This document shows, in pieces, positions 5,986-62,860 of a stretch of 64,000 bases of DNA. The stretch spans positions 20,487 through 84,486 of the forward strand of contig JABWBP010000005.1 in NCBI GenBank assembly GCA_013360445.1. Direction: 5' to 3'. Source of the DNA: Calditrichaceae bacterium (GTDB lineage: Bacteria; Calditrichota; Calditrichia; RBG-13-44-9; J075). The stretch's first letter is position 1. Each line of letters begins with the position of its first letter. Position numbers and translations under genes: made by a program. The notes beneath the pieces were generated by a model. It was given only the letters and a program-made list of their open reading frames with translations. It was not told the origin of the DNA and searched no databases.

Positions 5986-6080
5986 TTTTAAGGAGGGAGG
6001 GCGGCAACACCGCGATTAGAGCGGGAGAGGTTACGGCGGAAAGGGTGGTGGGAAAAACACGGGGTGATCGAATTGCTAAC

Positions 6081-6190
6081 TGGTTGAATGGTTGGATGGT
6101 TGGATGGCTAAGTGGTTAAACGGTCGGCTGGCCATTTAGCCATTTAACCATTTACTCATCCATCCATCAATCCATTACTCCATTACCCCA
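6081..6190. repeat. Long imperfect hairpin: TGG-word array (TTGGATGG, CTAAGTGG ...) immediately followed by its complement, a CCAT-word array.
   Basis: tggttgaatggttggatggttggatggctaagtggttaaacggtcggctgg | ccatttagccatttaaccatttactcatccatccatcaatccattactccattacc. It sits at the 3' end of the aminotransferase gene. Confidence 0.6.
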
Positions 6191-6200
6191 TGATACTCCC

Positions 6201-7487
6201 TCAATCTCGGTCGAAGCCCAGCAGCAGTTCCATCAGGCAGTCGATGTCATCTTCATTATTATAAAAGTGGGGGGAGACGCGGATGAAGCCGTTGCGCAGG
6301 GAAACGTGCACCCGGCGGCTCTTCAGGTGCTCGAACAAAGCGGGGGCGTTGGAATGGTGGAAGGTGACGATGCCGGAGCGGGATTCCGGCTCTAAGGGAG
6401 TGTAAATCCGGTAGCCGTTCTCTTGCAAACGCTCGATGAGGTAAGCGGTAATATAAAGAATGCGCTGCTCGATGGCGCGGGAGCCAATTTCCAAAAACAT
6501 CTCCAGGGAGGCGCCGGCCCCCGCCACGCCCGCGGCGTTGTAATTGCCCGGCTCGAAGCGCTCCGCAGTCGGCAAAAATTTCAGCTCATACTTGAAAAAT
6601 TCCCAGGAATCCTCCACGGAGAGCCAGCCTGCGGCCATGGGGTGGACTTGCTCGAAAATCCGCGGGGAGATGTACATGAACGCGGTTCCTAACGGCCACA
6701 TCAGCCACTTTTGCCCCCCGGAAACCAGGAAATCGATCCCGCTTTCCTGCACGTCCAAATGCAGCGCGCCCAATCCCTGGATGCCGTCCACGCAAAAAAT
6801 AACGTTATTTTCCCGGCACAGCCGCCCGATCTCTTTCAAATCGTTGCGAAAACCGTTCAAGAACTCCACGAAGCTGATGGAGAGCAGGCGGGTTTGGGGG
6901 CGAATCATGGCGGCGATATCCTCCAACTCGATCCGGCCGTCGCGCTGCTTTACGAAGTCGATCTCCACCCCGCGGCGCTGCAAGTTCAGAAAGGGGTACA
7001 CGTTGGAGGGGAATTCGAAATCGTTCAGCAGGATGCGCTCCCCGGGTTTCCACTCCAGTCCCTGCGCCAGCCAGTTCAGCCCCATGGAGGTGCTGTCGGT
7101 AAGGGCCAGGTATTCCGGCGCCGCGTTGATGAAACGGCCCAGCAAATTTTTGAAGCTGCGTTTGACCTCTACCAAATCCGGCCAGAACTCGATGTTGCCG
7201 CAGGAGCGTTCCCGGTTGTGGCGCTCGATGGCGGCAATCGCTTCGCTGTGCATGGGCCCCAGGGCGGCGTGGTTCAAATAGACCATCGCGGGGGATGGGG
7301 CGTTTATTTCGGCCAATTTGGGGCCGAAAGCGCCGGCCAAACCGGCGTGGTTATTTCCGTTGGATTCCCGGTACGGGGCTATCAAAGCCGGCTCCGCCGG
7401 GCTGAAGGTATGGGGGAATAAAGCGCGGTATTTTTTCCAATCGACTGCGGCGCCGCGCTTTTCCCTGCTCAGAACCATGTTTTCCAT
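6201..7487 (-). CDS. Class V aminotransferase-fold PLP-dependent enzyme (cysteine desulfurase / epimerase-like).
   Basis: SD GGAGAAG lies before MENMVLS. A PLP-lysine region, SGGQKWLMWPLGTAF, is present. The length and motif order fit the class V fold. The ORF track extends to 7544 with an earlier start. Confidence 0.8.
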   Translation of the reverse strand: MENMVLSREKRGAAVDWKKYRALFPHTFSPAEPALIAPYRESNGNNHAGLAGAFGPKLAEINAPSPAMVYLNHAALGPMHSEAIAAIERHNRERSCGNIEFWPDLVEVKRSFKNLLGRFINAAPEYLALTDSTSMGLNWLAQGLEWKPGERILLNDFEFPSNVYPFLNLQRRGVEIDFVKQRDGRIELEDIAAMIRPQTRLLSISFVEFLNGFRNDLKEIGRLCRENNVIFCVDGIQGLGALHLDVQESGIDFLVSGGQKWLMWPLGTAFMYISPRIFEQVHPMAAGWLSVEDSWEFFKYELKFLPTAERFEPGNYNAAGVAGAGASLEMFLEIGSRAIEQRILYITAYLIERLQENGYRIYTPLEPESRSGIVTFHHSNAPALFEHLKSRRVHVSLRNGFIRVSPHFYNNEDDIDCLMELLLGFDRD

Positions 7488-9521: not shown

Positions 9522-9602
9522 AGTGAGAAGTGGGAGGTAAGAAGTGGCAAGTAAGAAGTGAGAAGTTGCAAGTGAAAGGTGCAAATTCTCACTTGCAACT
9601 TA
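9522..9602. repeat. GAGAAGT-word heptamer array (8 units, NNNAAGT) ending in a short complementary segment.
   Basis: gtgagaagtgggaggtaagaagtggcaagtaagaagtgagaagttgcaagtgaaaggtgcaaattctcacttgcaactt, in the divergent spacer. Confidence 0.6.
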
Positions 9603-9656
9603 CCCCGTCTTGTTTGTAAAATCAACTGGTAAGCTCACCCTCCCAAAGGAGAAATA

Positions 9657-10058
9657 ATGACCTATGAAGATTGGGTAAGGCAGGTGCCAGATAGCATCAG
9701 GATTGATCCGCTATGGGCTTTTCAGGTTTATCCGAAGGCATTGTTTCTTTCGGATTTGGCCTGGGAGGATAGTGGAAAGATGTTAAAAGATGCCCGGGGA
9801 CGCAAAATCGCCGACCAATTGATTGACAGCGCCGGCTCTGTTAGCGCAAATATCGAAGAAGGTTTTGGCAGGGGATTTGGAAAAGACTATGCACGATTCT
9901 TGAGCATCTCTTTAGGCTCTGCTCGCGAGTGTCGCGGTTGGTACTATCGAGGAAGACGGTTGCTCAGCGACAATGTTCTCCGGCATCGATATCGTCTGCT
10001 GGATGAAATAATCGCCTTGTTAACAACACATATTCAAAAGCAGCGGAAGCATAAATGA
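9657..10058 (+). CDS. Four-helix-bundle protein of the TIGR02436 family (23S rRNA-intervening-sequence protein / Avd-like).
   Basis: SD AAAGGAG at 6 nt from ATG. The central motif SAGSVSANIEEGFGRGFGKDYARFLSISLGSARECRGWYY matches the family core (SNIAEG.GR ... FL.IA.GS). Length is 133 aa. Confidence 0.8.
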   Translation: MTYEDWVRQVPDSIRIDPLWAFQVYPKALFLSDLAWEDSGKMLKDARGRKIADQLIDSAGSVSANIEEGFGRGFGKDYARFLSISLGSARECRGWYYRGRRLLSDNVLRHRYRLLDEIIALLTTHIQKQRKHK

Positions 10059-10192
10059 GAAGTTAGAAGTGAGAAGTTGCAAGTGAGAAGTTGCAGGTTG
10101 CAAGTCAGAAGTGAATCTTCACCACCCTCTCACTTCTCACTTCCCACTTCTTACTTCCTACTTCTTACTTCTCACTTGCAACTTCTCACTCC
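10056..10192. repeat. Long imperfect hairpin: forward GAGAAGT-word array, then the reverse ACTTCTC-word array.
   Basis: tgagaagttagaagtgagaagttgcaagtgagaagttgcaggttgcaagtcagaagtgaatcttcaccaccctctcacttctcacttcccacttcttacttcctacttcttacttctcacttgcaacttctcac. It starts at the stop codon of the four-helix-bundle gene and overlaps the stop of the convergent ABC gene. Confidence 0.65.
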
Positions 10193-12046: not shown

Positions 12047-12165
12047 GGTGTCCAAGTGTTTAAGTGTTCAGGTGTTATAGTGTTTTAGTATTAAGGTGCT
12101 TTCCTAAATTTCGATCACAAGACGGCCATAACACATGAACACAATAACACTTAAACACTTGATCA
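12047..12165. repeat. GTGTT-word array, then a ~30-nt loop, then the AACAC-word array (long imperfect hairpin).
   Basis: gggtgtccaagtgtttaagtgttcaggtgttatagtgttttagtattaaggtgc ... ccataacacatgaacacaataacacttaaacacttgatcac. Confidence 0.6.
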
Positions 12166-12900
12166 CTGTAGTACCCGCGGAATGGTAGTGCGGAAATCCC
12201 GGAACAGGTGGTAGGCGTTTTCCAGGTAATCGACGGCGCGATCCCACTCCCGCTCGCTAACCGCCCGCAGCAGTTGGGCGATTTCTTCCTCAACGCCCAT
12301 AAATTGGTAGAATTGCACCGTATCCAGCAAACGGGCGATCACCCGCTCCAGTTCTTTTTGATTGCGCTCGGAGATGAGACGCAGGAGGGTCAGGTAGATA
12401 TTTTCGAAGTGCAGAATGAAGCTTTCTCTCATGCGCTCGTAGGATTTGCCGGGCGGCGCGGCGAGCGGGTCCGGGGCGAGGGCCGCCTCGGTGAATTTAT
12501 TTTGCTGCTGGCGGTTCAGCAGTACGAAGTTCATCTTGCGGATCAGGTCGCCGCGTAAAAAAGGTTTGGTGATAAAATCATTGGCGCCCATCCGTAACGC
12601 CTGCATCAGGGTGGCGCTGTCGGTGCGCGAGGTGATGATGATAACCGGGATGGCGCGGGTTTTTTCCATTTTCCGCAGCCGCTCCAGGGTCTGGAAACCG
12701 TCTAAGTGGGGCATGATCACGTCTAAAAAAATTAAATCCGGGCGGTACACCAGCGCCAGTTGGATGGCATCCTCTCCGTTGGTGGCGGTAGCCACCCGGC
12801 AATCCCTGCCGGTCAGCAGGTCGGATAGAATCTGCCGGGTAACCGGGTCGTCGTCCACCACTAACACATTGATCCTGGTTTTCTCTGGCTGCGGAACCAT
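12163..12900 (-). CDS. Response regulator with a receiver domain and a C-terminal ~120-aa helical domain of unknown output.
   Basis: VLVVDDD ... D ... the receiver-fold pattern with conserved Asp and Lys positions. The C-terminal half is helical with no recognisable DNA-binding motif. Confidence 0.75.
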   Translation of the reverse strand: MVPQPEKTRINVLVVDDDPVTRQILSDLLTGRDCRVATATNGEDAIQLALVYRPDLIFLDVIMPHLDGFQTLERLRKMEKTRAIPVIIITSRTDSATLMQALRMGANDFITKPFLRGDLIRKMNFVLLNRQQQNKFTEAALAPDPLAAPPGKSYERMRESFILHFENIYLTLLRLISERNQKELERVIARLLDTVQFYQFMGVEEEIAQLLRAVSEREWDRAVDYLENAYHLFRDFRTTIPRVLQ

Positions 12901-14426: not shown

Positions 14427-15272
14427 ATGATGATTGAGATCCTCCGACACACCTTTTGGGAGACCCTGGAGATTTCCGGGTTAGTGTTTGTCGCCCTGGT
14501 GGCGATGGACCTGGCCTACGTGTATTCTCGCGGTCAAATGCTCTCCTTCCTGCAAAAATACCCCCGCGCCCAGTACCTCATCAGCGCTTTCCTGGGCGCC
14601 GTTCCCGGTTGCGAAGGCGCTTTTTTAGCGGTCTCCCTCCATACCCACGGATTGATCACCTTCGGGGCGCTGATAGCGGCGTTCATCGCCACCACCGGCG
14701 ACGAAGCCTACGTGATGTTCTCCGAATTCCCTCTCGCCGCCCTGGGATTGACTGCGCTGCTCTTCTTAATAGGCTACCTCGCCGGCTGGCTGGTCGATGT
14801 AGCGCAAAAACGGCGGCGCGGCGGGCACGAATTCCATTGCGTGACGGCTATTTTTCATCCCGCGGTCAAGTTTTCCTTCCGGCACTACACCCTCGACCAT
14901 GTCTGGAACCACATCATCAAGCAGCACATGATCAAAATTTTTCTGTGGACTTTTGCGGCCATTTTTTTGATCGAATGGGCAATAACCGCCTACCAGTTGG
15001 AGCAATTTTTGAGCGACAAACCGTATTTAATGCTCTTAGCAGCAGGGCTGGTGGGGTTGATCCCCCAGAGCGGCCCGCATCTGATTTTCGTGAGCATGTT
15101 CATGGAAAAGACCATTCCGTTTTCGGTTTTGTTCACCAATATGCTGGTGCAAAACGGCCACGCCCTGCTGCCCCTGCTCTCGGTATCGCTCAAGGATTCC
15201 CTGGTAATCAAGGGGATCGGCCTGGCGCTCGGCCTGCTGCTTGGCGGCGCCCTGATGTGGGGGGGCATGTGA
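14427..15272 (+). CDS. Polytopic membrane protein, putative permease with a two-fold internal repeat; family uncertain.
   Basis: About 8-10 predicted TM helices. PGCEG is present in the first half and there is a duplicated architecture. No confident family name. Confidence 0.6.
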   Translation: MMIEILRHTFWETLEISGLVFVALVAMDLAYVYSRGQMLSFLQKYPRAQYLISAFLGAVPGCEGAFLAVSLHTHGLITFGALIAAFIATTGDEAYVMFSEFPLAALGLTALLFLIGYLAGWLVDVAQKRRRGGHEFHCVTAIFHPAVKFSFRHYTLDHVWNHIIKQHMIKIFLWTFAAIFLIEWAITAYQLEQFLSDKPYLMLLAAGLVGLIPQSGPHLIFVSMFMEKTIPFSVLFTNMLVQNGHALLPLLSVSLKDSLVIKGIGLALGLLLGGALMWGGM

Positions 15273-15294
15273 GGGGGGATTGGGTATTACTTAA

Positions 15295-15370
15295 AACGTG
15301 ATGCGTAAAACATAATGCGTAATAAATACGCAATATGCAATACGAATTACGAGTTATGCATCACGTTTCA
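15295..15370. repeat. CGTAA-word array followed by the TTACG-word complement (hairpin).
   Basis: acgtgatgcgtaaaacataatgcgtaataaatacgcaatatgcaatacgaattacgagttatgcatcacgt. Confidence 0.55.
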
Positions 15371-16424: not shown

Positions 16425-16492
16425 GGAGTGCAAAACTTCAGTTTTGCACTCCTAAAACGCAGCCAGTGTGCAAAACTGAAGTTTTGCACTCC
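16425..16492. repeat. Two REP-like perfect hairpins, GGAGTGCAAAACTTCAGTTTTGCACTCC and GTGCAAAACTGAAGTTTTGCACTCC.
   Basis: 10-12 bp perfect stems with 2-4 nt loops. The same motif recurs in about 10 other spacers. Confidence 0.7.
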
Positions 16493-20218: not shown

Positions 20219-20316
20219 GGAGTGCAAAACTTTAGTTTTGCATTCCAGATGCGGTTTTTTTTGCTTCCGCAAAAAGTCGAAGATTACCCCAGTGCAAAAC
20301 TGAAGTTTTGCACTCC
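20219..20316. repeat. Two REP-like hairpins in the ftsA-ftsZ spacer.
   Basis: ggagtgcaaaactttagttttgcattcc and agtgcaaaactgaagttttgcactcc. Confidence 0.65.
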
Positions 20317-22519: not shown

Positions 22520-22612
22520 ACGGGTGTTTTAGTGCTCTGGTGTTCGAGTGTTATGCTGTGTCATTCTCAAAATTTACGAGAACACTCGGACACTAAAACA
22601 CTTGAACACATT
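22520..22612. repeat. GTGTT-word array followed by its AACAC-word complement.
   Basis: cacgggtgttttagtgctctggtgttcgagtgttatgctgtg ... gagaacactcggacactaaaacacttgaacac. Confidence 0.6.
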
Positions 22613-25003: not shown

Positions 25004-25125
25004 CAGTAGGCAGTAGGCAGTTGGCAGTAGGCAAAAGAAACTGCGCTTCTGCCGCTTTTCACTGCAAAACTGAAGTTTTGCACTCCGGTTATTGCTTACT
25101 GCCTACTGCCTACTTGCCTACTGCT
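25004..25125. repeat. Nested element: a GTAGGCA-heptamer array, then a REP-like hairpin, then the TGCCTAC complement array.
   Basis: cagtaggcagtaggcagttggcagtaggcaa ... ctgcaaaactgaagttttgcactcc ... ttgcttactgcctactgcctacttgcctactgc. The right arm overlaps the murG stop. Confidence 0.65.
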
Positions 25126-29207: not shown

Positions 29208-29221
29208 CGCATCCTTGAAGA

Positions 29222-29336
29222 ATTGAAAAGTGCTAAATGAAAAGTGAAAATTGCGCAGGAGATTATCCCTTTCGCTCTCTTCCCTTTACACTTCACACTT
29301 TACACTTTTCATTTTGCATTTTTCACTTTGCACTTC
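29222..29336. repeat. GTGAAAA-word array followed by the TTTTCAC/ACTTTNC complement array (hairpin).
   Basis: ttgaaaagtgctaaatgaaaagtgaaaattgcgcagg ... ctttacacttcacactttacacttttcattttgcatttttcactttgcacttc. Confidence 0.6.
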
Positions 29337-39463: not shown

Positions 39464-39574
39464 GTTTCAGGTTTTGAGTTTCGAGTTTGGCGCATGGCGC
39501 ATAGAGCATAGGGCATAGCGGGGCAGTTCCGTCTTATCCTTGCGCTTTGCACTCTGCGCTCTGCGCCATGCGCC
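39464..39574. repeat. GAGTTTC heptamer x3, then a GCGCAT-word array with its ATGCGC-word complement (hairpin).
   Basis: ggttttgagtttcgagtttgg cgcatggcgcatagagcatagggcatagcg ... cgctttgcactctgcgctctgcgccatgcgcc. Confidence 0.6.
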
Positions 39575-42204: not shown

Positions 42205-42340
42205 GAGCGAGTGTTTTCGTGTGCAAGTGTTATGGTGTTCAAGTGTTCGAGTGTTATAGTGTTTTAGTGTCAGGTATTATCGTATTGAGATAACTTGAAC
42301 ACTAAAACATCATAACACCATAACACGAAAACACTCGCCC
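42205..42340. repeat. Longest GTGTT-word hairpin: 8-mer NNNGTGTT x8, a loop, then the AACAC-word complement.
   Basis: gagcgagtgttttcgtgtgcaagtgttatggtgttcaagtgttcgagtgttatagtgttttagtgtcaggtattatcg ... gataacttgaacactaaaacatcataacaccataacacgaaaacactcgccc. Confidence 0.65.
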
Positions 42341-42897: not shown

Positions 42898-42957
42898 AGT
42901 TTCCTCCTGAGGTTGATGGTCTGAAAAAATTAGCCAGATTCGTTATATTTGAAAAGT

Positions 42958-43064
42958 GGGACGTAAAGTGTAAAGCGTAAATCGTAATGCGTAATTTCAT
43001 TTTCTATTCGCTTTAGATATTACCCTTTACGCATTACGTGTTACACATTACGCATTACGTTTCA
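42958..43064. repeat. CGTAAA-word array with its TTACG-word complement (hairpin).
   Basis: gacgtaaagtgtaaagcgtaaatcgtaatgcgtaatttc ... ccctttacgcattacgtgttacacattacgcattacgtttcac. Confidence 0.6.
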
Positions 43065-43067
43065 CTC

Positions 43068-45383
43068 CTAAAATTGCCCGAATTTGAAATGGATTTTCCA
43101 TTGCCCTTTGCGATTCCCGAAGCGGTCGTAGTAATCGTACCCGTAACCGAAATCCACCCCGATGATCCCCAGCAAAGGCATAAACAGCCGCGCGCCTACC
43201 CCGGCGGAGCGGCGCATATCCGAAAGGTTGAATTCCGAAGAAGATTCCCAGGCGTTTCCCGTCTCCATAAAGAAAAGCCCGAAAATGGTGGGGTTGGGGG
43301 CAATGGGAAAGCGCAGTTCCGCAGTAAAGCGGGCCATGGAGCGTCCCCCCTGGGGAGGGCCAACCCGCCCTTCATCGTAACCGCGCAGCGATTCCGAATA
43401 TCCCAGGCCGGAACCACCCATGAAAAACAGTTCGTTGGGATTGATGTAATAATTACTGTGCAGCCCGTTGATAGAACCGAACATACTTTCCAGGTAAAGC
43501 ACCAGGCCCAATAGAAGCGGACTGTAGGATTCTACCGAGAAGATATTTTTGACGAAATCTTCGTCCCCGCCCAGGAAGCCCCCGGCAAGCTTGGTGCGCA
43601 GGTTGAAAACCGTTCCCATGGTAGGGAATTCCGGGCGGTTGCGGCTGTCCCGGCGGAAGATTTGGGTAACGCTAACCTGGGTAGAACTGGTTGCAAACAG
43701 GTTCGGGTTGAATCCGATGGTATTGCGGATATTGAAAATTTCGTTTTCCGCGACCCGGAAAATCCAATCGCCCCGGAAATAGTTGTCCGGCCAGCGGAAA
43801 CGGCGCCCGACCTGAACGGTGAACCCCCGTTCTTTGCCGTCCCAGGGACGGAAAGCCCCGTTAAAGCGGGTATCGAACACCGAGAAACCTAACAGGGTGG
43901 GACTGCCGAAAGCCCAGGGCTCGGTAAAACTCAAGGTGAGGTTACGGTAAAACTTTCCGAAATCCCACTGAAACCCTAACCGCTGCCCGTCTCCGCCGGA
44001 AAGCGGCCGCCGCAAGGAGAAGTTGTTCAGCGCAAACCCGATGCTGCCGATAACCCCGTCGCGCTGGCTGTAACCGGCGCTCATATTGGCGGTATCGGTG
44101 GAGCGCTCTTCCACGTTCACTTCCAGGTTAACGTGCTTGTCGTCGTTGGGAAGGAGCTTCACATCCGGCACCACGTTGCCAAAATAGTTCAGAATCCACA
44201 CGTCGCGCACGCTGCGTTCCAGCCTGGCGCGGTTGAAAATGTCTCCGGGATATATTTTGAACTCCCGCCGCACCACTTTTTCGTTGGTTTTGGAATTACC
44301 GGTGATGATGATCTCCTTGATCCGCACCACGTGCCCCTCGTTGATCCGCAGCTTAATGTCCACGGTATTCTGGTTGACCGGAATTTCCTGCGGCAAAACG
44401 TTGGCGAAAAGGTAGCCCTCATTGTAATAAAGGTTTTGGATATTCTCCCGGATGCTTTTCTCGAAATTCTCCTGGTTGTAAATGTCCCCTTCCTTGAACA
44501 GCAACTGCCGCTCCAGTACTTCGCTGGGGAACACCGTATTGCCCTCGAACGAGATCTTCCCGAAATAGTACTGGTTTCCTTCGTTGACGTAAACGTCGAT
44601 GAACAGGTCGCGCTTATCTTCGCTGTAATAAATGGAATCCCTTTCCACTTCGGCGTCGCGGAAGCCTCTTTTGCGGCAGAACTTCACCAGGTTTTCCAGG
44701 TCTTCTTCGTATTTTTCCCGGTTGTAATCGGCTCCCCGCCACCAGCGGTCTTCTTTAATCTTTTTAAACGATTTCTTCACCTCTTTTTCGGTCAGCTCAT
44801 CCAGGCCGAGAACGCGAATGCGTTTTACCTGCACCTTTTTGCCTTCCCGCAACACTATGCTGGCCTGCACGCGATTATCGGCGGTATGCACGGTATCAAT
44901 GTCAACTTTCGCCAGCAGGTAGCCTTCTTCTTTATATTTATTCAGGAGGGAGCGTTTGGCTTTATATTGCGAAAAAGGAGTCAGCACCATCCCCTTAAAA
45001 AAGCCGATTTCTTTGTCGATATCTTTTTTCTTCAGCTTTTTGTTGCCCTCTACCGTCCATCCATCCAGGCGGGGATACTCTTCGACCCGGATGAGCAGAT
45101 CCAGGTTCTCTCCTACCTGGCGTTCTGCTAAAACCTGCACGTCGGAGAAGATGTTCAGCGCCCACAAATTCTTGATCGCCCGCTGCACCTGGTCCCCGGT
45201 AATGAAGGTGCCGCGAATCAAACCGCTATTTAACAGGATGAGCGTGCTGTCGGCGAGTTCGTTCCCCTCGATCCGGATATTGTTGATCTTAAACTGCTGT
45301 TGAACCTGGGCAGAAAGGGCCGGCGGGAGCATTACCGCCGCCAGCATCAAAAAGAGCAGCAATTTAAGTTGTTTATAGCGCAT
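43068..45383 (-). CDS. bamA: Outer membrane protein assembly factor BamA.
   Basis: Signal peptide, 5 POTRA repeats, a C-terminal 16-strand barrel ending in ...KFGQF. Confidence 0.9.
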   Translation of the reverse strand: MRYKQLKLLLFLMLAAVMLPPALSAQVQQQFKINNIRIEGNELADSTLILLNSGLIRGTFITGDQVQRAIKNLWALNIFSDVQVLAERQVGENLDLLIRVEEYPRLDGWTVEGNKKLKKKDIDKEIGFFKGMVLTPFSQYKAKRSLLNKYKEEGYLLAKVDIDTVHTADNRVQASIVLREGKKVQVKRIRVLGLDELTEKEVKKSFKKIKEDRWWRGADYNREKYEEDLENLVKFCRKRGFRDAEVERDSIYYSEDKRDLFIDVYVNEGNQYYFGKISFEGNTVFPSEVLERQLLFKEGDIYNQENFEKSIRENIQNLYYNEGYLFANVLPQEIPVNQNTVDIKLRINEGHVVRIKEIIITGNSKTNEKVVRREFKIYPGDIFNRARLERSVRDVWILNYFGNVVPDVKLLPNDDKHVNLEVNVEERSTDTANMSAGYSQRDGVIGSIGFALNNFSLRRPLSGGDGQRLGFQWDFGKFYRNLTLSFTEPWAFGSPTLLGFSVFDTRFNGAFRPWDGKERGFTVQVGRRFRWPDNYFRGDWIFRVAENEIFNIRNTIGFNPNLFATSSTQVSVTQIFRRDSRNRPEFPTMGTVFNLRTKLAGGFLGGDEDFVKNIFSVESYSPLLLGLVLYLESMFGSINGLHSNYYINPNELFFMGGSGLGYSESLRGYDEGRVGPPQGGRSMARFTAELRFPIAPNPTIFGLFFMETGNAWESSSEFNLSDMRRSAGVGARLFMPLLGIIGVDFGYGYDYYDRFGNRKGQWKIHFKFGQF

Positions 45384-54620: not shown

Positions 54621-54645
54621 TTAATCACGTTGTGAGTTTGACCTC

Positions 54646-54820
54646 GGAGTGCAAAGCTTCAGCTTTGCACTGTATCGGAGTGTAAAACTCCGGCTTTGCA
54701 GTTTAATTCCTCATCGAGCAGTTCCGGCGTTTGCCCTGTTGCGAAGCGGCTCCTTCGGAGGATTGCCGTCAGATTGAGGATTTTTCAGGGTTGTGCAAAA
54801 CTGAAGTTTTGCACTCCGCT
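54646..54820. repeat. Three REP-like hairpins, two of them degenerate variants.
   Basis: ggagtgcaaagcttcagctttgcactg; ggagtgtaaaactccggctttgcag; gtgcaaaactgaagttttgcactcc. Confidence 0.6.
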
Positions 54821-56644: not shown

Positions 56645-57940
56645 ATGCAAATAGACGTCAAAAAGGTAAATGCGAGCAAACGGCAGATCACCATCAAATT
56701 GACCCCGGAGGAGCTGCGGGAAGTCGAAAAGCAGGTAATCCGTAACCTCCAGAAAAAACTCACCCTCCCGGGTTTCCGTAAAGGACACATTCCCCCGGGA
56801 ATGTTCCGGCGCAATTTCGGCGAGGCCATCAAAGCGGAGATTCCGGAGCTTGCTATCGCCAAATATTATTCTGAAATGCTCGCTGAAACCGATCTGAAAC
56901 CTGTCGGCGTGGGAGAGATTACCCGGATCGACTTCAAGGAAATCGAAGAAGGAATGGAGTTTGATATTGAGTTGGAAGAGGAGCCGGAAATCGAGCTGAG
57001 AAAATATAAAAACCTGAAAGTCGAAAAAGAGATCGCGGTGGTGACGGATGAAATGGTCGATCAAACGCTGTTGAATATTCGCAAGCGTTTTGCCACCTCA
57101 AAAGCGGTCGAGATGGCCGCCAAAGGGCATTTCATCACCTTCACCGCCCAGTTGTTGGGGGAGGGCGACACCCCGGTAATCGGCAAAAAATATGATCAAA
57201 TCACCCTGGAAATCGGTTCCGGGGAATTTGATCCCGGTTTCGAGGAACAACTGATCGGCATGGAGGTGGGCGGGGAACGGATTATCCGCCGGATGGTTCC
57301 GCCCCGCCCCGGTGAAAAGAGCCGCGAGCCCCTTCTGGAAAGTTATAAAGTAACCGCCGAGGCCATCGAAGAGCGAGAATTGCCCCCCCTGGATGATGAT
57401 CTGGCAAAGAACCTCGATGATGAAAAAATCGAGACCCTCGAACAACTGAAGGATGCTTTGCGCAAAGACCTGCAGTACCGCCTCGAACGGCGCAGTAATT
57501 CCCAATTCTACAGCCGCCTGGCCGATGAAGCGCTCAAGGAAAATCCCTTTGAAGTGCCGGATTCGATGCTCAACCGGCAATTGGATTCCATTGTGGAACG
57601 GATTCAAGAACGCTATCCCGATGAAGAAATCGATGAAGCCACGGTGCGGGAAAAAAACCGCGCCGACGCCATTTACGCCCTGCGCTGGCACCTGCTGAAA
57701 AAGCAGATTGCCAGGGCCGAAAGCATCTCTGTCAGCGATGAAGAAACGCTCAAATTCATCGATTCTCTCAATATTACCGTCAAAGAAAAACACCAGCGGA
57801 AAAAGAATAAGGATTATCTCTATGACTTGAAGCAGGATTTGCTGGAAGAGAAAATCCTACATTTCTTGTCGCAGAATGCCGATATTGTCGAAGTCTTTGT
57901 TCAGCCGCAGGCAGAAGAAGGGGCAATCACCCGGGTGTAA
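56645..57940 (+). CDS. tig: Trigger factor.
   Basis: N-terminal ribosome-binding domain with a GFRKGH signature, 431 aa. Confidence 0.9.
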   Translation: MQIDVKKVNASKRQITIKLTPEELREVEKQVIRNLQKKLTLPGFRKGHIPPGMFRRNFGEAIKAEIPELAIAKYYSEMLAETDLKPVGVGEITRIDFKEIEEGMEFDIELEEEPEIELRKYKNLKVEKEIAVVTDEMVDQTLLNIRKRFATSKAVEMAAKGHFITFTAQLLGEGDTPVIGKKYDQITLEIGSGEFDPGFEEQLIGMEVGGERIIRRMVPPRPGEKSREPLLESYKVTAEAIEERELPPLDDDLAKNLDDEKIETLEQLKDALRKDLQYRLERRSNSQFYSRLADEALKENPFEVPDSMLNRQLDSIVERIQERYPDEEIDEATVREKNRADAIYALRWHLLKKQIARAESISVSDEETLKFIDSLNITVKEKHQRKKNKDYLYDLKQDLLEEKILHFLSQNADIVEVFVQPQAEEGAITRV

Positions 57941-58060
57941 GCGAACGCTGGCTATCTGCCGGCGTGCAGGCGCTGATTTTTTTCGATTTTTTCACCCAAC
58001 TTCAAAAGCCTTTCAGGGCTTTGATGGTTATGAAAACTTAAACGCTGCGAGGAATCATAC

Positions 58061-58678
58061 ATGCCTTTAGTCCCCATCGTTATCGAACAATCCGGGCGCT
58101 CGGAACGCGCCTACGACATTTATTCCCGCCTCTTGAAAGAGCGGATCATTTTTCTGAGCACTCCCATCGACGATACCATTGCCAGCCTTACCATTGCCCA
58201 GCTTCTGTTTCTGGAAGCGGAAGACCCGGAAAAAGACATCTACCTGTATTTGAATACCCCCGGCGGGTGGGTAACCTCCGGGCTGGCAATTTACGATACC
58301 ATGCAGTACATCAAGCCGGACGTGGTGACCACCTGCATCGGGCAGGCTGCCAGCATGGGCGCTATTTTGCTGGCTGCGGGGGCCCGGGGAAAGCGCTTCG
58401 CCCTGCCCAACGCCCGGATCATGATCCACCAGCCCCTCGGCGGAGTGGAAGGCCAGGCCACTGACATCGACATCCACGCCCGGGAAATTTTGAATATCCG
58501 CGACCGCTTGAACCACATTCTGTCGGAAAAAACCGGCCAGGCGCTGGAGAAGGTCGAACAGGATTCGGACCGGAATTTCTTCATGTCCGCCCAGCAGGCC
58601 CTGGAGTACGGGATCGTGGATGAAATTTTAGCCAAACGGGGCGGGATCGAGAAGCTGAAAGTGCGGGAAGAGGAATAG
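58061..58678 (+). CDS. clpP: ATP-dependent Clp protease proteolytic subunit.
   Basis: Ser-His-Asp catalytic triad context: [13 protein letters not shown]. Confidence 0.95.
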
Positions 58679-58884
58679 GTCGTGCAAGTATTCTGCGGGT
58701 ACCGGAAACGCAATACTCAACGCTATAACTACCGGGGCGGAAATTCATTATCAGAAGTAACTATTCAGGCGTTTTGCCACAGAGGCCACAGAGAGCACAG
58801 AGACATAAAAAAATTCCTAATCAAATCACAAATACAGGGATATAAGTCTCTAATGAATAGTGACTATCAGAAAACATTAAATTA

Positions 58885-59140
58885 ATACTGGTATCCGGTA
58901 TTAATGCGAATTGAATTAAGGATTGGAGTAAATATATGGGATTTGGAGGCTGATCGGTACTTAACATCCCCCCTGTCCCTCCTTCAAAAGGGGGAAATCA
59001 AGGGCGAATGCGAAGCTCCCCCCTTTGAAGGGGGGGACAGGGGGGATGTCGTAAGCCGATTTTAAGATAAATCCGATACAGTACTTTCAACCCTTAATTC
59101 TCATTATTGGCATCCGGTATCCGGTAGTAATCGTTATATC
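58885..59140. repeat. Composite palindromic element in the 475-bp clpP-clpX spacer. It has a flanking direct repeat GGTATCCGGTA[T/G]TAAT, terminal inverted repeats around GAATTAAGG / CCTTAATTC, and a central ~31-bp inverted repeat rich in C and G tracts.
   Basis: catcccccctgtccctccttcaaaaggggga ... tcccccctttgaagggggggacaggggggatg, with the flanks read directly from the sequence. Confidence 0.55.
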
Positions 59141-59153
59141 CAGTCACCTAACT

Positions 59154-60416
59154 ATGAAAAACAAAGATATGAGCAAGCGAGATTATTTCGATCACGAATC
59201 CTACTGTTCTTTTTGCAATCGCAAAGCCACCCAGGTGGCGCAATTGGTTACCGGGGCCTCCGCCAGTATCTGCGACCAGTGCATCCAGAGCGCCAACGAA
59301 ATTTTGCGCAATTCCCGCTCCTCGCGCTTCCAGCGGGGAGAGTTGCGGCTGCCCAAACCGGCGGATATCAAGAAATTCCTCGACCAGTTCGTCATCGGGC
59401 AGGAGCGCGCCAAGATCGCGCTCTCCGTGGCGGTCTATAATCACTACAAACGCATCTCCTTCGACGCCCAGGCCGATGACGTGGAAATCGACAAGAGCAA
59501 TATTCTCCTCATCGGCCCCACCGGGGTGGGTAAAACCCTCTTAGCCCAGACCCTGGCGCGGCTGCTGCAAGTGCCCTTCTCCATCTCCGACGCCACCACT
59601 CTTACCGAGGCCGGCTACGTGGGCGAAGACGTGGAGAATATCTTAGTGCGCCTGTACCAATCTTCCAATTATGATATTCCCTCCACGGAACGGGGCATCG
59701 TCTATATCGACGAGATCGATAAAATTGCCCGCAAGGCCGGCAGCCCCTCCATCACCCGCGACGTTTCCGGCGAAGGGGTGCAGCAGGCGCTGCTGAAAAT
59801 TTTAGAAGGCACCGTATCCGCCATTCCCCCCAAGGGCGGGCGCAAACACCCGGAAGCGCCGATGATCCACATCAACACCCGCAATATTCTTTTTATCTGC
59901 GGGGGGGCGTTCGAGGGCCTGGGGGACATCATTCGCCGGCGCATCGGGGAAAAATCGGTGGGATTTTCCGCCAAAATCAAATCCGTCAAGCACCTCAAAG
60001 AGGGGGAGGTGATGGAGTTCGTGGAGCCGGAAGACCTGCTCCATTACGGATTGATCCCGGAGCTGATCGGGCGGTTGCCGGTTTTCGTGGGATTGCAGGA
60101 ATTGAGCGATTCGGAAATGTTAGCAATCCTCTCGGAGCCGAAGAATTCCCTGATCAAACAATACAAAAAACTGTTCGAGTTAGAAGGCATCGAGCTGAAA
60201 TTTACCGAGAAAGCCCTGCGGGAGATCGTCAAAATGTCGCAGAAGCGGCGCACCGGGGCGCGGGGCCTGCGCAGCATCCTGGAAAAGGTGATGGTCAACG
60301 TAATGTTCCAGGTACCCTCGCTGGGCAACGTAAAGGAGTGCCTGATCACCGAAGAGGTGATCCTGGGCAGCGCCGAACCGGTCTTGAAGCAGGGGAAATC
60401 GCGCCAGTCCGCGTAA
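59154..60416 (+). CDS. clpX: ATP-dependent Clp protease ATP-binding subunit ClpX.
   Basis: N-terminal zinc-binding domain CSFC...CDQC, Walker A GPTGVGKT, and the GYVG pore loop. Confidence 0.95.
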
Positions 60417-60427
60417 GGATAAACACC

Positions 60428-60470
60428 TAATTGGCAATTAGCAATTGGCAATTGTCAATTGCCAATTTAA
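60428..60470. repeat. CAATTG heptamer palindromic array.
   Basis: taattggcaattagcaattggcaattgtcaattgccaattta. Confidence 0.65.
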
Positions 60471-60508
60471 TTTTTTTAACGCACCTTAGTCACTTTAAAA
60501 CACTTTCC

Positions 60509-62860
60509 ATGAAAACCATTCAACAATTTACCAAAGGCGATGAAACCATCCGCATTCCCGGCACTTTGCCGTTGCTGCCCATCCGCGACCTGGTGATTTT
60601 TCCCTACTCCGTGGTGCCGCTGTTAGTGGGGCGGGAGAAATCCCTGGCGGCCATCGAAATCGCCAAACATAACGACAACCTGCTGTTAGTAGCGACCCAG
60701 AAAAATCCCGAAAAAGAGGACATTACCTCCGCGGACCTGTTCCGGGTGGGCACGGTGTGCCGGGTTCTGCAAGTGCTGGAATTTCCCAACGGCCACGCCA
60801 AGTTAGTGGTGGAGGGGATCACCCGGGCGCGCATCAACCGATTTTTGAAAAACCGCCAATCCTTTCACGCGCAAATCTCCCTGTTCCGGGAGCAGGAAAC
60901 CTTCACCCGGGTTTCCGAAGCGTATCTCAAGCAGCTGATCTATTATTTTCAGGAATACATCAGCTTTACCCCGGATTTGCCGGACGAGATGCTGGAGCAC
61001 CTGCACCGCCAGGGCGACCCGGAGCGGATGATCGATTTCGTGGCTCTCAACATCCAGGCGGAGGCGGCGGAGAAGCAGAAAATTCTCCAGGAACGCGACC
61101 TGGAGAAGCGCCTGCTGCTCTTGTTAGAATTGCTGCAACAGGTCATCGGCCACCACCGGGTGCGCCAGGAGATCGACCAGCGGGTGCAGGAGCGGCTGAT
61201 CCAGAACCAGCGCAACTACTATTTGCAAGAGAAGCTGAAGGTGATCAACAAGGAGTTGGGCGAGGAAGAGGAGCTTTCGCCGGAAATCCTCAAGTTGGAA
61301 GAGGAAATCCTGGCGGCGAGCCTGCCCGATCACGCCCGGGAAAAGGCGGTGGAGGAGTTGGGCAAGCTGAAAAAAATTCCCCCCTTCTCCCCGGAATATA
61401 CCGTGATCCGCAACTACCTGGACTGGCTGATCCGGGTTCCCTGGGCGCAGCACACCCCCGACCGCCTCGACATCCGGGAAGCGCAGCGCATTCTCGACGA
61501 GGACCATTTCGGGCTGGAAAAACCCAAGGAGCGCATCGTGGAGCACCTCGCGGTGCTGAAACGGGTGCAGGGCATGAAGGGGCCGATCCTGTGCTTTGTA
61601 GGCCCCCCGGGGGTGGGGAAAACTTCGTTGGGAAAATCCATCGCCCGGGCGTTAGGGCGGAATTTCGTGCGCATCTCCTTAGGCGGGGTGCGCGACGAGG
61701 CGGAAATTCGCGGCCATCGCCGCACCTACATCGGCTCCCTGCCCGGCAAAATCATCCAGTCCATGAAAAAAGCGGCCACCAACAACCCGGTTTTTCTGTT
61801 AGACGAGGTGGATAAGATGAGCATGGATTTCCGAGGCGACCCCTCCGCGGCGCTGTTGGAAGTGCTCGACCCGGAGCAGAACAAGAGCTTCGTGGATCAT
61901 TATTTAGACGTGGATTACGATCTCTCCCAGGTCTTTTTCATCACCACCGCCAACGTGCGCGCCAATATTCCCCTGCCGTTGCAGGATCGCATGGAGATCA
62001 TCGAGCTGCCCGGCTACTTGGAGCACGAAAAGCTAAAAATTGCCCAACTGCACCTGATTCCCAAGCAGTTCCGGGAGCACGGATTAAGCTCCGGGGAGCT
62101 GCAAATTTCGGAAGAGAGCATTCTGCGGATCATCCGGGAATTTACCCGGGAGGCGGGGGTGCGTAATTTGGAGCGGGAAATCGCCAATCTTTGCCGCAAG
62201 GCGGTGCGGCGGCTCTCGGAAAACGGGGATATCAAGCGCCTGAACATCACCCCGGAGAGTCTGGAGGAATTCCTGGGCCAGCCCCACTTCCTCAACCGCA
62301 AAGCGGATTTGCGGGAAGAGGTGGGGGTGGCCACCGGCTTAGCCTGGACCCCTTTCGGCACCGGGGATTTGCTGCGCATCGAGGTAAGCGTGCTGCCCGG
62401 CAAGGGGCAGTTTACCCTCACCGGCAAATTGGGCGAGGTGATGCAGGAATCCGCCCGCACCGCGCTCAGTTACATCCGCTCCATCGCCGGGGAGTTGGAG
62501 ATCGCCAACGAAATTTTCGAGAAGAACGATCTGCACATTCACGTGCCGGAGGGAGCGGTTCCCAAGGACGGGCCTTCCGCGGGCATCGCGCTCACCTCGG
62601 CGATCATTTCCGCCCTGACCAAGCGCCCCCTGCGCAACACCGTGGCCATGACCGGGGAAATTACCCTGCGCGGCAAAGTGCTGGCCGTGGGCGGCCTGAA
62701 GGAAAAACTGTTAGCCGCCCAGCGCAATCGCGTGCCCATGGTCATCGTGCCCGCGGAGAACACCAAAGACATCGCGGACCTGCCCAAAGAGTTGCGGGAG
62801 GGATTGGAGATTGTGCAGGTGGAGCATTATAGGGAGGTGTTGGGGCGGGTGTTGGTGTAG
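60509..62860 (+). CDS. lon: ATP-dependent protease Lon.
   Basis: N-terminal LON domain, Walker A GPPGVGKTS, and the C-terminal Ser-Lys dyad region PKDGPSAGIA. Start at MKTIQQF; the track start at 60431 lies in the repeat. Confidence 0.95.
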   Translation: MKTIQQFTKGDETIRIPGTLPLLPIRDLVIFPYSVVPLLVGREKSLAAIEIAKHNDNLLLVATQKNPEKEDITSADLFRVGTVCRVLQVLEFPNGHAKLVVEGITRARINRFLKNRQSFHAQISLFREQETFTRVSEAYLKQLIYYFQEYISFTPDLPDEMLEHLHRQGDPERMIDFVALNIQAEAAEKQKILQERDLEKRLLLLLELLQQVIGHHRVRQEIDQRVQERLIQNQRNYYLQEKLKVINKELGEEEELSPEILKLEEEILAASLPDHAREKAVEELGKLKKIPPFSPEYTVIRNYLDWLIRVPWAQHTPDRLDIREAQRILDEDHFGLEKPKERIVEHLAVLKRVQGMKGPILCFVGPPGVGKTSLGKSIARALGRNFVRISLGGVRDEAEIRGHRRTYIGSLPGKIIQSMKKAATNNPVFLLDEVDKMSMDFRGDPSAALLEVLDPEQNKSFVDHYLDVDYDLSQVFFITTANVRANIPLPLQDRMEIIELPGYLEHEKLKIAQLHLIPKQFREHGLSSGELQISEESILRIIREFTREAGVRNLEREIANLCRKAVRRLSENGDIKRLNITPESLEEFLGQPHFLNRKADLREEVGVATGLAWTPFGTGDLLRIEVSVLPGKGQFTLTGKLGEVMQESARTALSYIRSIAGELEIANEIFEKNDLHIHVPEGAVPKDGPSAGIALTSAIISALTKRPLRNTVAMTGEITLRGKVLAVGGLKEKLLAAQRNRVPMVIVPAENTKDIADLPKELREGLEIVQVEHYREVLGRVLV

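Follow-up and report, generated by a model that had tools for sequence, protein, structure and literature searches.

Two Small Palindromic Elements as the Probable Source of the Long clpP-clpX Spacer in a Calditrichaceae Bacterium

What fills the unusually long space between clpP and clpX in a Calditrichaceae bacterium? In the 64,000-nt stretch of contig JABWBP010000005.1 that was analyzed as a whole (the window), the + strand carries tig (56645-57940), clpP (58061-58678), clpX (open reading frame, ORF, from 59154) and lon in this order. From the end of clpP at 58678 to the first in-frame ATG of clpX at 59154, the spacer measures 475 bp, as an initial annotation of the sequence had given it. 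It holds two elements, A (58757-58864) and B (approximately 58881-59093); both are insertions and neither is protein-coding. Probably, an intercistronic spacer that was ancestrally short (~20-50 bp) received two small palindromic elements, both non-coding and non-autonomous, by independent insertions.

Element B would be a shell of ~213 bp resembling a MITE (miniature inverted-repeat transposable element), inserted at a TTAA, with a REPIN-like inverted doublet of a C6-linker-C6-loop-G6 hairpin unit (the C6/G6 unit) at its center. Element A is a CACAGAG simple-repeat hairpin with a 14-bp terminal inverted repeat (TIR) and an 8-bp flanking duplication; lying upstream of B (CACAGAG repeat, 58776-58803), it had been overlooked in the initial annotation.

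Short Spacers in Related Genomes

The gene order tig-clpP-clpX-lon is kept in four related Calditrichia genomes (loci fetched for comparison bear L numbers). The clpP-clpX spacer is 46 bp in L028 and L029 (ClpX 88% identical), 35 bp in L030, 18 bp in L031 and 165 bp in L032. Since three of the four relatives have spacers of only 18-46 bp without any such element, the 475-bp spacer is indicated to be a lineage-specific insertion.

The spacer of L028 offers an empty site for B. It opens with CAGAAAACATTAATTCTC, which contains a single TTAA, and CAGAAAACATTAA stands directly 3′ of the clpP stop. In the window CAGAAAACATTAATTCTC is interrupted, with CAGAAAACATTAA at 58868-58880 and TTAATTCTC at 59094-59102, a split that points to the insertion of ~213 bp (58881-59093), apparently at a TTAA. 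The boundaries of B and the TTAA duplication are drawn from one empty site (L028) and one paralogue (L008, see below), and the left boundary is approximate, since a global alignment of the L028 spacer fits two placements of the left breakpoint. The corresponding features of the spacer are:

58868-58880, + strand: remnant of the ancestral short spacer, CAGAAAACATTAA, identical to the 13 bases that follow the clpP stop in L028 and L029
58877-58880: TTAA, left-hand copy in B's candidate target duplication (single TTAA in the L028 sequence CAGAAAACATTAATTCTC)
58881-59093: element B, a non-coding nested palindrome of ~213 bp, delimited by the L028 empty site and the extent of the L008 homology
59094-59097: TTAA, right-hand copy in the candidate target duplication; the ancestral TTCTC comes next (comparison with L028)
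58679-58748: lineage-specific segment directly after the clpP stop, with no counterpart in the 46-bp L028 spacer

Structure and Folding of Element B

The direct repeat, the TIR-like arms and the 31-nt core inverted repeat noticed in the initial annotation are all present, far beyond chance. The nested parts of the palindrome are the following:

58881-58905: small palindrome ATTAATACTGG-TAT-CCGGTATTAAT of the 7-mer units GGTATCC GGTATTA (repeats I7 and D1; L008 counterpart GGTGTTCAGGTGTTCG)
58913-58944: left TIR-like arm, GAATTAAGGATTGGAG... (repeat I2), kept in L008 as GAATTAAGGGTTGGAG
58964-58994: left core arm, ACAT-CCCCCC-TGT-CCCTCC-TTCAAAA-GGGGG (repeat I1), by family comparison a degenerate C6-linker-C6-loop-G6 unit
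58995-59018: central loop of 24 nt containing TCAAGGGCGAATG, in the orientation opposite to the L008 copy
59019-59049: right core arm, CCCCC-TTTGAA-GGGGGGG-ACA-GGGGGG-ATGT (repeat I1)
59069-59100: right TIR-like arm, ...CAACCCTTAATTC (repeat I2); the L008 homology stops at AACCC
59104-59131: degenerate second palindrome of 7-mer repeats, GGCATCC GGTATCC GGTAGTA (repeats D1 and D2), which holds copy 2 of the direct repeat
58904-59065, + strand: 53-codon ORF running through the hairpin, considered spurious

The direct repeat GGTATCCGGTA[T/G]TAAT is found at 58890-58905 and 59116-59131, with 15 of its 16 positions matching. Both it and the core 19-mer have one site each in the window, against 0.02-0.03 matches expected from shuffles. 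The TIR-like arms are 32 nt long and 75% complementary, and the imperfect TIRs (shell sequence TTAAGGRTTGRAG) begin with TTAAGG; their first 16 nt are conserved in L008. The arms of the core are 87% complementary around the 24-nt loop, and a covariance model of the core family scores 76 bits over 58963-59050. Run over the whole window with its filters off, the model returned the known copy only, the next matches being unrelated palindromes of at most 19 bits. Likewise, searches with the TIRs of B in the rest of the window and in all fetched loci gave only the known copies.

The whole spacer folds at -165 kcal/mol (z = -8.1; 0 of 100 shuffles equal) and far better than shuffles on either strand (z-scores of -8.1 and -6.6), and the core hairpin of B reaches -68.8 kcal/mol in folding that allows for G-quadruplexes. 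The ORF that the initial annotation had described across the hairpin is present, although it has 53 codons rather than 55; no homologues of its 53-aa product were found, and in L008, where the core is inverted, the corresponding frame is interrupted.

A Second Copy of Element B

L008, a Calditrichaceae metagenome-assembled genome (MAG), carries a true homologue of B, with 76% identity over window positions 58909-59077. The two copies share the TIR GAATTAAGGRTTGGAG and the flanks TTAACAT...ATGTCRTAAGCCG. The L008 copy has an unrelated locus, with a heparinase-like gene on one side and a glycosyltransferase gene on the other; it fills the whole gap of 203 bp (6015-6217) from the TAG stop at 6012-6014 to the glycosyltransferase ATG at 6218; ATGAACCC at the start of the latter gene overlaps the right end of B. 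The L008 core is 93% identical to the window core when reversed and ~76% when aligned co-linearly; between flanks that are identical, the loop TCAAGGGCGAATG is turned round. B and its core both have homologues at unrelated loci, and the loop inverts between copies.

Dispersal of the C6/G6 Core

A scan of 185,579 species-representative genomes with the palindromic pattern CCCCCCTGTCCC-N40-70-GGGACAGGGGGG (24 specified bases) matched 24 loci, against a chance expectation of ~0.07 by our own estimate (596 Gb x 31 gap lengths / 4^24, uniform base composition). These copies were ascertained with an exact pattern, so the identity of their outer arms is partly a selection effect; the inner C6-loop-G6 hairpins, found in nearly all 24 loci, were not required by the pattern. 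Near-universal among the loci is the arrangement xxxT-C6-TGT-C6-TTnnAA-G6, a loop of 12-37 nt, and C6-TTnnAA-G6-ACA-G6-Axxx.

The core is found in different settings. A single MAG, OZ253442, has at least 13 loci by the exact pattern, and in its copies the core is central in an element of ~200 bp with a 16-bp TIR, GGGGTTGTTGAAAAAG, and 5-bp target duplications:

OZ253442.1, L005, L007, L009-L011, L014-L016, L018, L022, L023 and L026: ~200-bp MITE copies, with duplications such as GAGGA, TCATT, AAGGC and TACTC

In Thiobacillus and other Pseudomonadota MAGs the units are bare, 98 nt long, with the ends AAAT...ATTT. For instance, six of these are found within 8 kb of a Pseudomonadota MAG (L020, 1298-7537), where they separate nearly every gene of a hydrogenase-maturation operon (HycI, HyaE, HupH, HybE, HypE-like); one of the six is read through in frame and fuses two genes into a false ORF of 594 aa. 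Solo half-units also occur, and the unit, of 25-32 nt, is found singly as well as in inverted pairs. The linker may be TGT, TAAAT, CAG, TAG, AA or TTCCGT, and the two arms of a doublet may diverge while each keeps its inner hairpin (CTCCCC/GGGGAG vs CCCCCC/GGGGGG). The core design recurs in further Calditrichia, in Pseudomonadota and in other MAGs, with at least three phyla represented, either bare, solo or within unrelated MITE shells.

The consensus folds into a single long hairpin; of its 30 pairs, nine show compensatory changes, among them the four outermost (ACAT/ATGT, GCAA/TTGC, GAAT/ATTC or AAAT/ATTT). In every subfamily with two or more copies, the loop orientation varies among copies with the same flanks. 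The L013 loop, AATTTCAAGGTT, is the exact reverse complement of the L024 loop, AACCTTGAAATT, and the OZ253442 loops are split 9:3. In a set of 26 copies the positions are mostly intergenic, most commonly between same-strand genes. No recurrent protein family or transposase was seen among the 25 most frequent Pfam families of 141 ORFs flanking 23 copies, nor a transposase among the 25 most frequent families of 42 ORFs of the window.

In metagenomes, a scan with the 16-mer ACATCCCCCCTGTCCC gave mostly chance matches among those listed, none with the exact second arm, together with at least nine loci (about nine among the matches listed) that carry related solo or variant units. Viral contigs gave no match to the doublet pattern and two GC-rich matches to the unit pattern, both without the family architecture. 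A blastn search of element B and a Thiobacillus copy against plasmids returned no match, in a search whose low-complexity filter may have masked the runs. Motif strings retrieved only human OCT4 primers from the searchable literature.

A related palindrome is located in the clpP-clpX spacer of L032 (Calditrichia; ClpX 80% identical), ~30 nt past the clpP stop. It is perfect, AT-C6-TCTATCT-C6-G6-AGATAGA-G6-AT (L032 2865-2908), is followed by GTTTTCTT, and scores 41 bits with the covariance model (E = 1.5e-6). It is most simply taken as a second, independent arrival at the same permissive site.

Two further observations were made on repeats of the window. At 15259-15278, where the ORF 14456-15301 has its 3′ end, GGGGGGGCATGTGAGGGGGGAT forms a solo half-unit, G7-N7-G6-AT, just upstream of a simple-repeat hairpin (15294-15368), and may be a remnant of the C6/G6 family. 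A separate REP/REPIN-like family is based on a palindrome of 28 nt, GGAGTGCAAAACTTCAGTTTTGCACTCC, whose copies mostly form inverted pairs separated by 18-122 nt:

16425-16492, 20219-20316, 25062-25088 and 54645-54818: copies of the GGAGTGCAAAACTTCAGTTTTGCACTCC palindrome

One copy of this palindrome is placed within the loop of the simple-repeat hairpin 25004-25114.

Element A and the Simple-Repeat Hairpins

Element A stands between the clpP end and B, and is composed as follows:

58757-58864: element A, a simple-repeat-armed hairpin with left TIR GTAACTATTCAGGC and right end TGAATAGTGAC (inverted repeat I4); the right arm is lost in the window
58776-58803, + strand: left arm of element A, tandem 9-mers GCCACAGAG GCCACAGAG AGCACAGAGA (repeat family D3), unique in the window
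58749-58756 (left) and 58865-58872 (right): TATCAGAA, an 8-bp direct repeat flanking element A, by sequence reading a candidate target-site duplication

The intact form is seen in L001 (GCA_026648155.1) and in the Logan assembly L002. Both have 58 additional bp after window position 58853, which restore a right arm, CTCTTCTGTGGTCTCTGTGGC, opposite the GCCACAGAG repeat; the complete element is bounded by GTAACTATTCAGGC and GGCTGAATAGTGAC and flanked on both sides by TATCAGAA. This duplication around a TIR-bounded structure is an indication that element A is an insertion separate from B. L001 is 100% identical to the window across flanks of 9.6 kb and 5.1 kb, and the 58-bp indel (58853/58854 vs L001 9643-9700) is the sole difference over 14.8 kb; it may reflect variation in the population or a difference in assembly at the hairpin. 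Since its length is not a multiple of three, an opposite-strand gene of 86 aa called in L001 is shortened to only 48 codons in the window. Searches with the TIR of element A elsewhere in the window and in all fetched loci found only the known copies.

Hairpins of the same class fill intercistronic spacers of the window. Their arms are degenerate tandem repeats of 7-9 nt, with a unit that differs at each locus (GAGAAGT, GTGTTnA, GCGTAAn, CAGTAGG, GAAAAGT and GGCGCAT among others). There are at least 10 long intergenic ones, with arms of 25-60 nt, nearly all between same-strand genes and some within the dcw cell-division cluster:

9548-9616, 10053-10190, 12048-12166, 15294-15368 and 22524-22601: simple-repeat hairpins 1-5
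25004-25114, 29221-29328, 39489-39574, 42207-42338 and 42935-43086: simple-repeat hairpins 6-10

The STRR heptamer repeats of cyanobacteria are likewise intergenic tandem units of 7-9 nt with a unit sequence that varies by locus. The present repeats resemble them in these respects, but are paired in inverted orientation as hairpin arms of 40-60 nt, to which element A adds a TIR and an 8-bp duplication.

In two other genomes, CACAGAG-type arms enclose a loop of 200-230 nt with C6/G6 units, in L024 (5939-6195) and on the minus strand of L082 (330-580); the loop has a doublet in the former and two outward-facing units in the latter. The two element types are therefore recurrently associated, and that A and B are neighbors in the window may be more than coincidence.

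Comparison with Known Repeat Systems

B appears to resemble a REP/REPIN embedded in a MITE. With the RAYT-associated REP/REPIN/BIME systems of Proteobacteria, the C6/G6 family has in common a GC-rich imperfect palindromic unit of ~27-32 nt, the presence of units either solo or as inverted doublets that fold into one long hairpin, and a dispersal in intergenic regions, notably between same-strand and convergent genes and inside operons, with no gene encoded. Two REP superfamilies are defined by GTAG or CGTC tags in the account of PMC3733652. The C6/G6 units, on the contrary, have no unpaired GTAG/CGTC tag; their ends (ACAT, GCAA, GAAT or AAAT) pair with the other arm. Unlike REPs, they have their 5′ C-run in duplicate, with a variable linker in between (TGT, TAAAT, CAG, TTCCGT), and the doublet lies inside larger TIR-bounded shells in Calditrichaceae and OZ253442. 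No RAYT gene was seen, with no Y1_Tnp among the top 25 families, by frequency, of the 141 flanking ORFs, and copies are sparse in the source window, at one in 64 kb (vs six within 8 kb of L020).

Correia/NEMIS of Neisseria and ERIC of enterobacteria are operon MITEs of ~100-250 bp, non-coding and with TIRs, that form a long hairpin; Correia targets TA. B is like them in its size, its non-coding nature, its TIRs, the hairpin formed by the whole element, the position between genes, a presumed co-transcription with them and the short AT-rich target (candidate TTAA). It differs from them in having no sequence similarity, in a target duplication at one copy only, and in a center whose module recurs in unrelated shells of other phyla. 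Tn3-derived miniature elements (TIMEs) have TIRs of ~38 bp and 5-bp target duplications. The OZ253442 shell, which is unrelated to that of B, is the only one to recall them (TIR starting GGGG, 5-bp duplications), but its TIR is ~16 bp rather than ~38 bp. The genome paper of Caldithrix abyssi describes a different REP-like repeat, AACCGTTnnAACGGTT.

As for the MITE character of B, the element is small (~213 bp, below ~600 bp), has no coding capacity and possesses TIRs. A TTAA flanks the window copy by comparison with the L028 empty site, with no matching duplication at L008, and the copy number is one in the window and one further in another genome (L008). The suggestion in the initial annotation of a miniature inserted MITE-like element thus holds as far as insertion is concerned, through the short spacers of relatives, the L008 copy and the dispersed core; as a strict MITE, B is only a candidate. 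B appears to be an ordinary MITE/REPIN-like insertion of a family that was not found described in the searchable literature.

Other candidate classes were tried and rejected. No intrinsic terminator was found in a scan of the spacer: the only site is 57955-57975, after tig, and the core is followed by ATGTCGTAAGCC with no T-run. In the case of an integron attC, ACTTAAC on the left fits R″ (RYYYAAC), but ATGTCGTAAGCC on the right has no GTTRRRY, and in L020 the copies, regularly spaced, have hydrogenase-maturation genes between them rather than cassettes. Among Rfam 15 families the best score was 34 bits, for a microRNA hairpin model with a threshold of 100.

The Genes around the Spacer

The coding sequences that border the spacer are:

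58061-58678, + strand: clpP, an ORF of 205 aa; Pfam CLP_protease on the identical gene in L001
59169-60416, + strand: clpX from its probable true start, by the length in relatives and the L028 alignment; the ORF opens at 59154

Annotated ClpX proteins of relatives (Calditrichia or Calditrichota) have 415-416 aa, and in the alignment a ten-residue segment of the window clpX product pairs with MANKEYFDHE of L028. On these two grounds the real start would be ATG 59169, which makes the spacer ~490 bp rather than 475; the ORF start at 59154 is most likely over-extended (59154-59168). The identical ClpX is encoded on L001 and on two Logan assemblies.

For lon, the start at 60509, as called in L001, is most likely, not TTG 60431. 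The clpX-lon spacer (60417-60508) translates as AISNWQLSIANL, which suggests another AATTG-type repeat.

Discussion

The reading of the spacer as two insertions has several points against it. No autonomous element or transposase with matching ends was found among the listed families of flanking and window ORFs. The core of B and each TIR have one copy only in the window, and the TTAA duplication is seen at the window copy only, with ATAG and TAAA in its place in L008. The palindrome at 59104-59131 lies outside the inferred B insertion, is absent from L028 and from the L008 copy, and is not accounted for. Finally, the C6/G6 palindrome in the same spacer of L032 could mean selection for a hairpin rather than neutral insertion.

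This last point leads to the alternative that deserves most attention, an intercistronic RNA hairpin exapted as a barrier to 3′ exonucleases, an RNase III site or a partial attenuator, by which the clpP transcript would exceed that of clpX, in the manner of intercistronic REPs in E. coli operons. It is compatible with an origin by insertion and may be held as a possibility, albeit a doubtful one. The stability of the core and the fold of the spacer speak for it, as do the frequency of the C6/G6 family between same-strand genes and inside operons, the independent palindrome ~30 nt after the clpP stop in L032, and the long hairpins in many intercistronic spacers of this genome, including the dcw cluster; mRNA stabilization by REPs has precedent in the accounts of PMC5317091 and PMC3733652. 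On the other hand, three of the four close relatives do without any such structure, and the element is near-symmetric on both strands, as is expected of a palindrome at the DNA level and not of an RNA tuned on one strand. Far less room is left for a dedicated structured clpX leader (of a thermosensor or riboswitch kind) or an independent small RNA gene, both of which the initial annotation had proposed. The strong predicted structure just upstream of clpX would suit either, but the structure is absent from the closest relatives, its homologue sits at an unrelated locus with an inverted core, no Rfam 15 family is reached at gathering score (generic microRNA-hairpin models give 31-34 bits vs thresholds of 90-104), and the spacer scan showed no sigma-70-like promoter or terminator-like site. 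Such a role is very unlikely.

A switch at the DNA level fares no better. The G-quadruplex or i-motif put forward in the initial annotation, which would form in DNA or RNA from the G-runs and C-runs, was based on four G-runs; three long runs (5, 7 and 6) are indeed on the + strand with mirror-image C-runs, but the fourth is only GGG, not comparable to the others, and lies 25 nt away. In the folding check the plain hairpin of -68.8 kcal/mol outcompetes it, a two-tetrad quadruplex (~-5 kcal/mol) appears only once the complementary C-arm is removed, and the family conserves arm complementarity with compensatory changes, not the number or spacing of G-tracts; a quadruplex switch is hence given almost no credence. 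An inverton, that is, an invertible segment whose loop flip controls clpX, would explain why both loop orientations are found among copies with the same flanks (L013/L024, OZ253442 and window/L008). It is nevertheless hardly credible, as the invertible segment of 12-37 nt (24 nt in the window) is too short for a promoter, no recombinase is among the listed Pfam families of the window ORFs, and all three assemblies of this locus have the same orientation. Moreover, a short spacer enclosed by long perfect inverted repeats commonly inverts by mutation, as is well known from chloroplast hairpins. As to an assembly artefact at the palindrome, the 58-bp indel in the hairpin of element A could be an assembly difference within an otherwise identical region. 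B itself is identical in L001 (an NCBI MAG) and L002 (a separate Logan run assembly), L003 (a second Logan assembly) agrees in the part it covers, the last ~100 nt upstream of clpX, and homologous elements exist in unrelated assemblies, so that an artefact is extremely improbable.

Under the preferred reading of two insertions, A and B would have been mobilized in trans by an enzyme encoded elsewhere. Both would be transcribed within the clpP-clpX mRNA with clpX still served by the clpP promoter, since the 18-46 bp of the relatives leave no room for a separate clpX promoter. In the mRNA, they would fold into a highly stable hairpin that lacks a U-tract; it would leave transcription unterminated, but could block 3′ exonucleases or undergo cleavage by RNase III. 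The elements would primarily be selfish or neutral DNA rather than a dedicated regulator of clpX. A bolder proposal is that the C6-linker-C6-loop-G6 unit and its inverted doublet are the recognition module of an undescribed, widespread and hairpin-specific mobilization system, the frequent and exact loop inversion being the footprint of hairpin copying and not of ordinary recombination. This would imply a new pairing of the REP/RAYT kind or another enzyme acting on single strands or hairpins, active across Calditrichota, Pseudomonadota and other phyla, whose module was captured by unrelated MITE shells. The proposal is speculative, and we consider it unlikely.

For the biology of the locus, the tempting but wrong idea of a special clpX regulatory leader is now removed, and an essential protease operon is seen to tolerate ~430 bp of inserted hairpin-forming DNA between its cistrons. 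The C6/G6 palindromic repeats form a family new to Rfam and to the sequences in the searchable literature. The occurrence of the same core in unrelated shells across phyla deserves attention, as does a loop inversion that is both frequent and exact. If an enzyme partner exists, the family would be the entry point for finding it; if none does, it would cleanly illustrate the spread and persistence of stable hairpins in intercistronic RNA.

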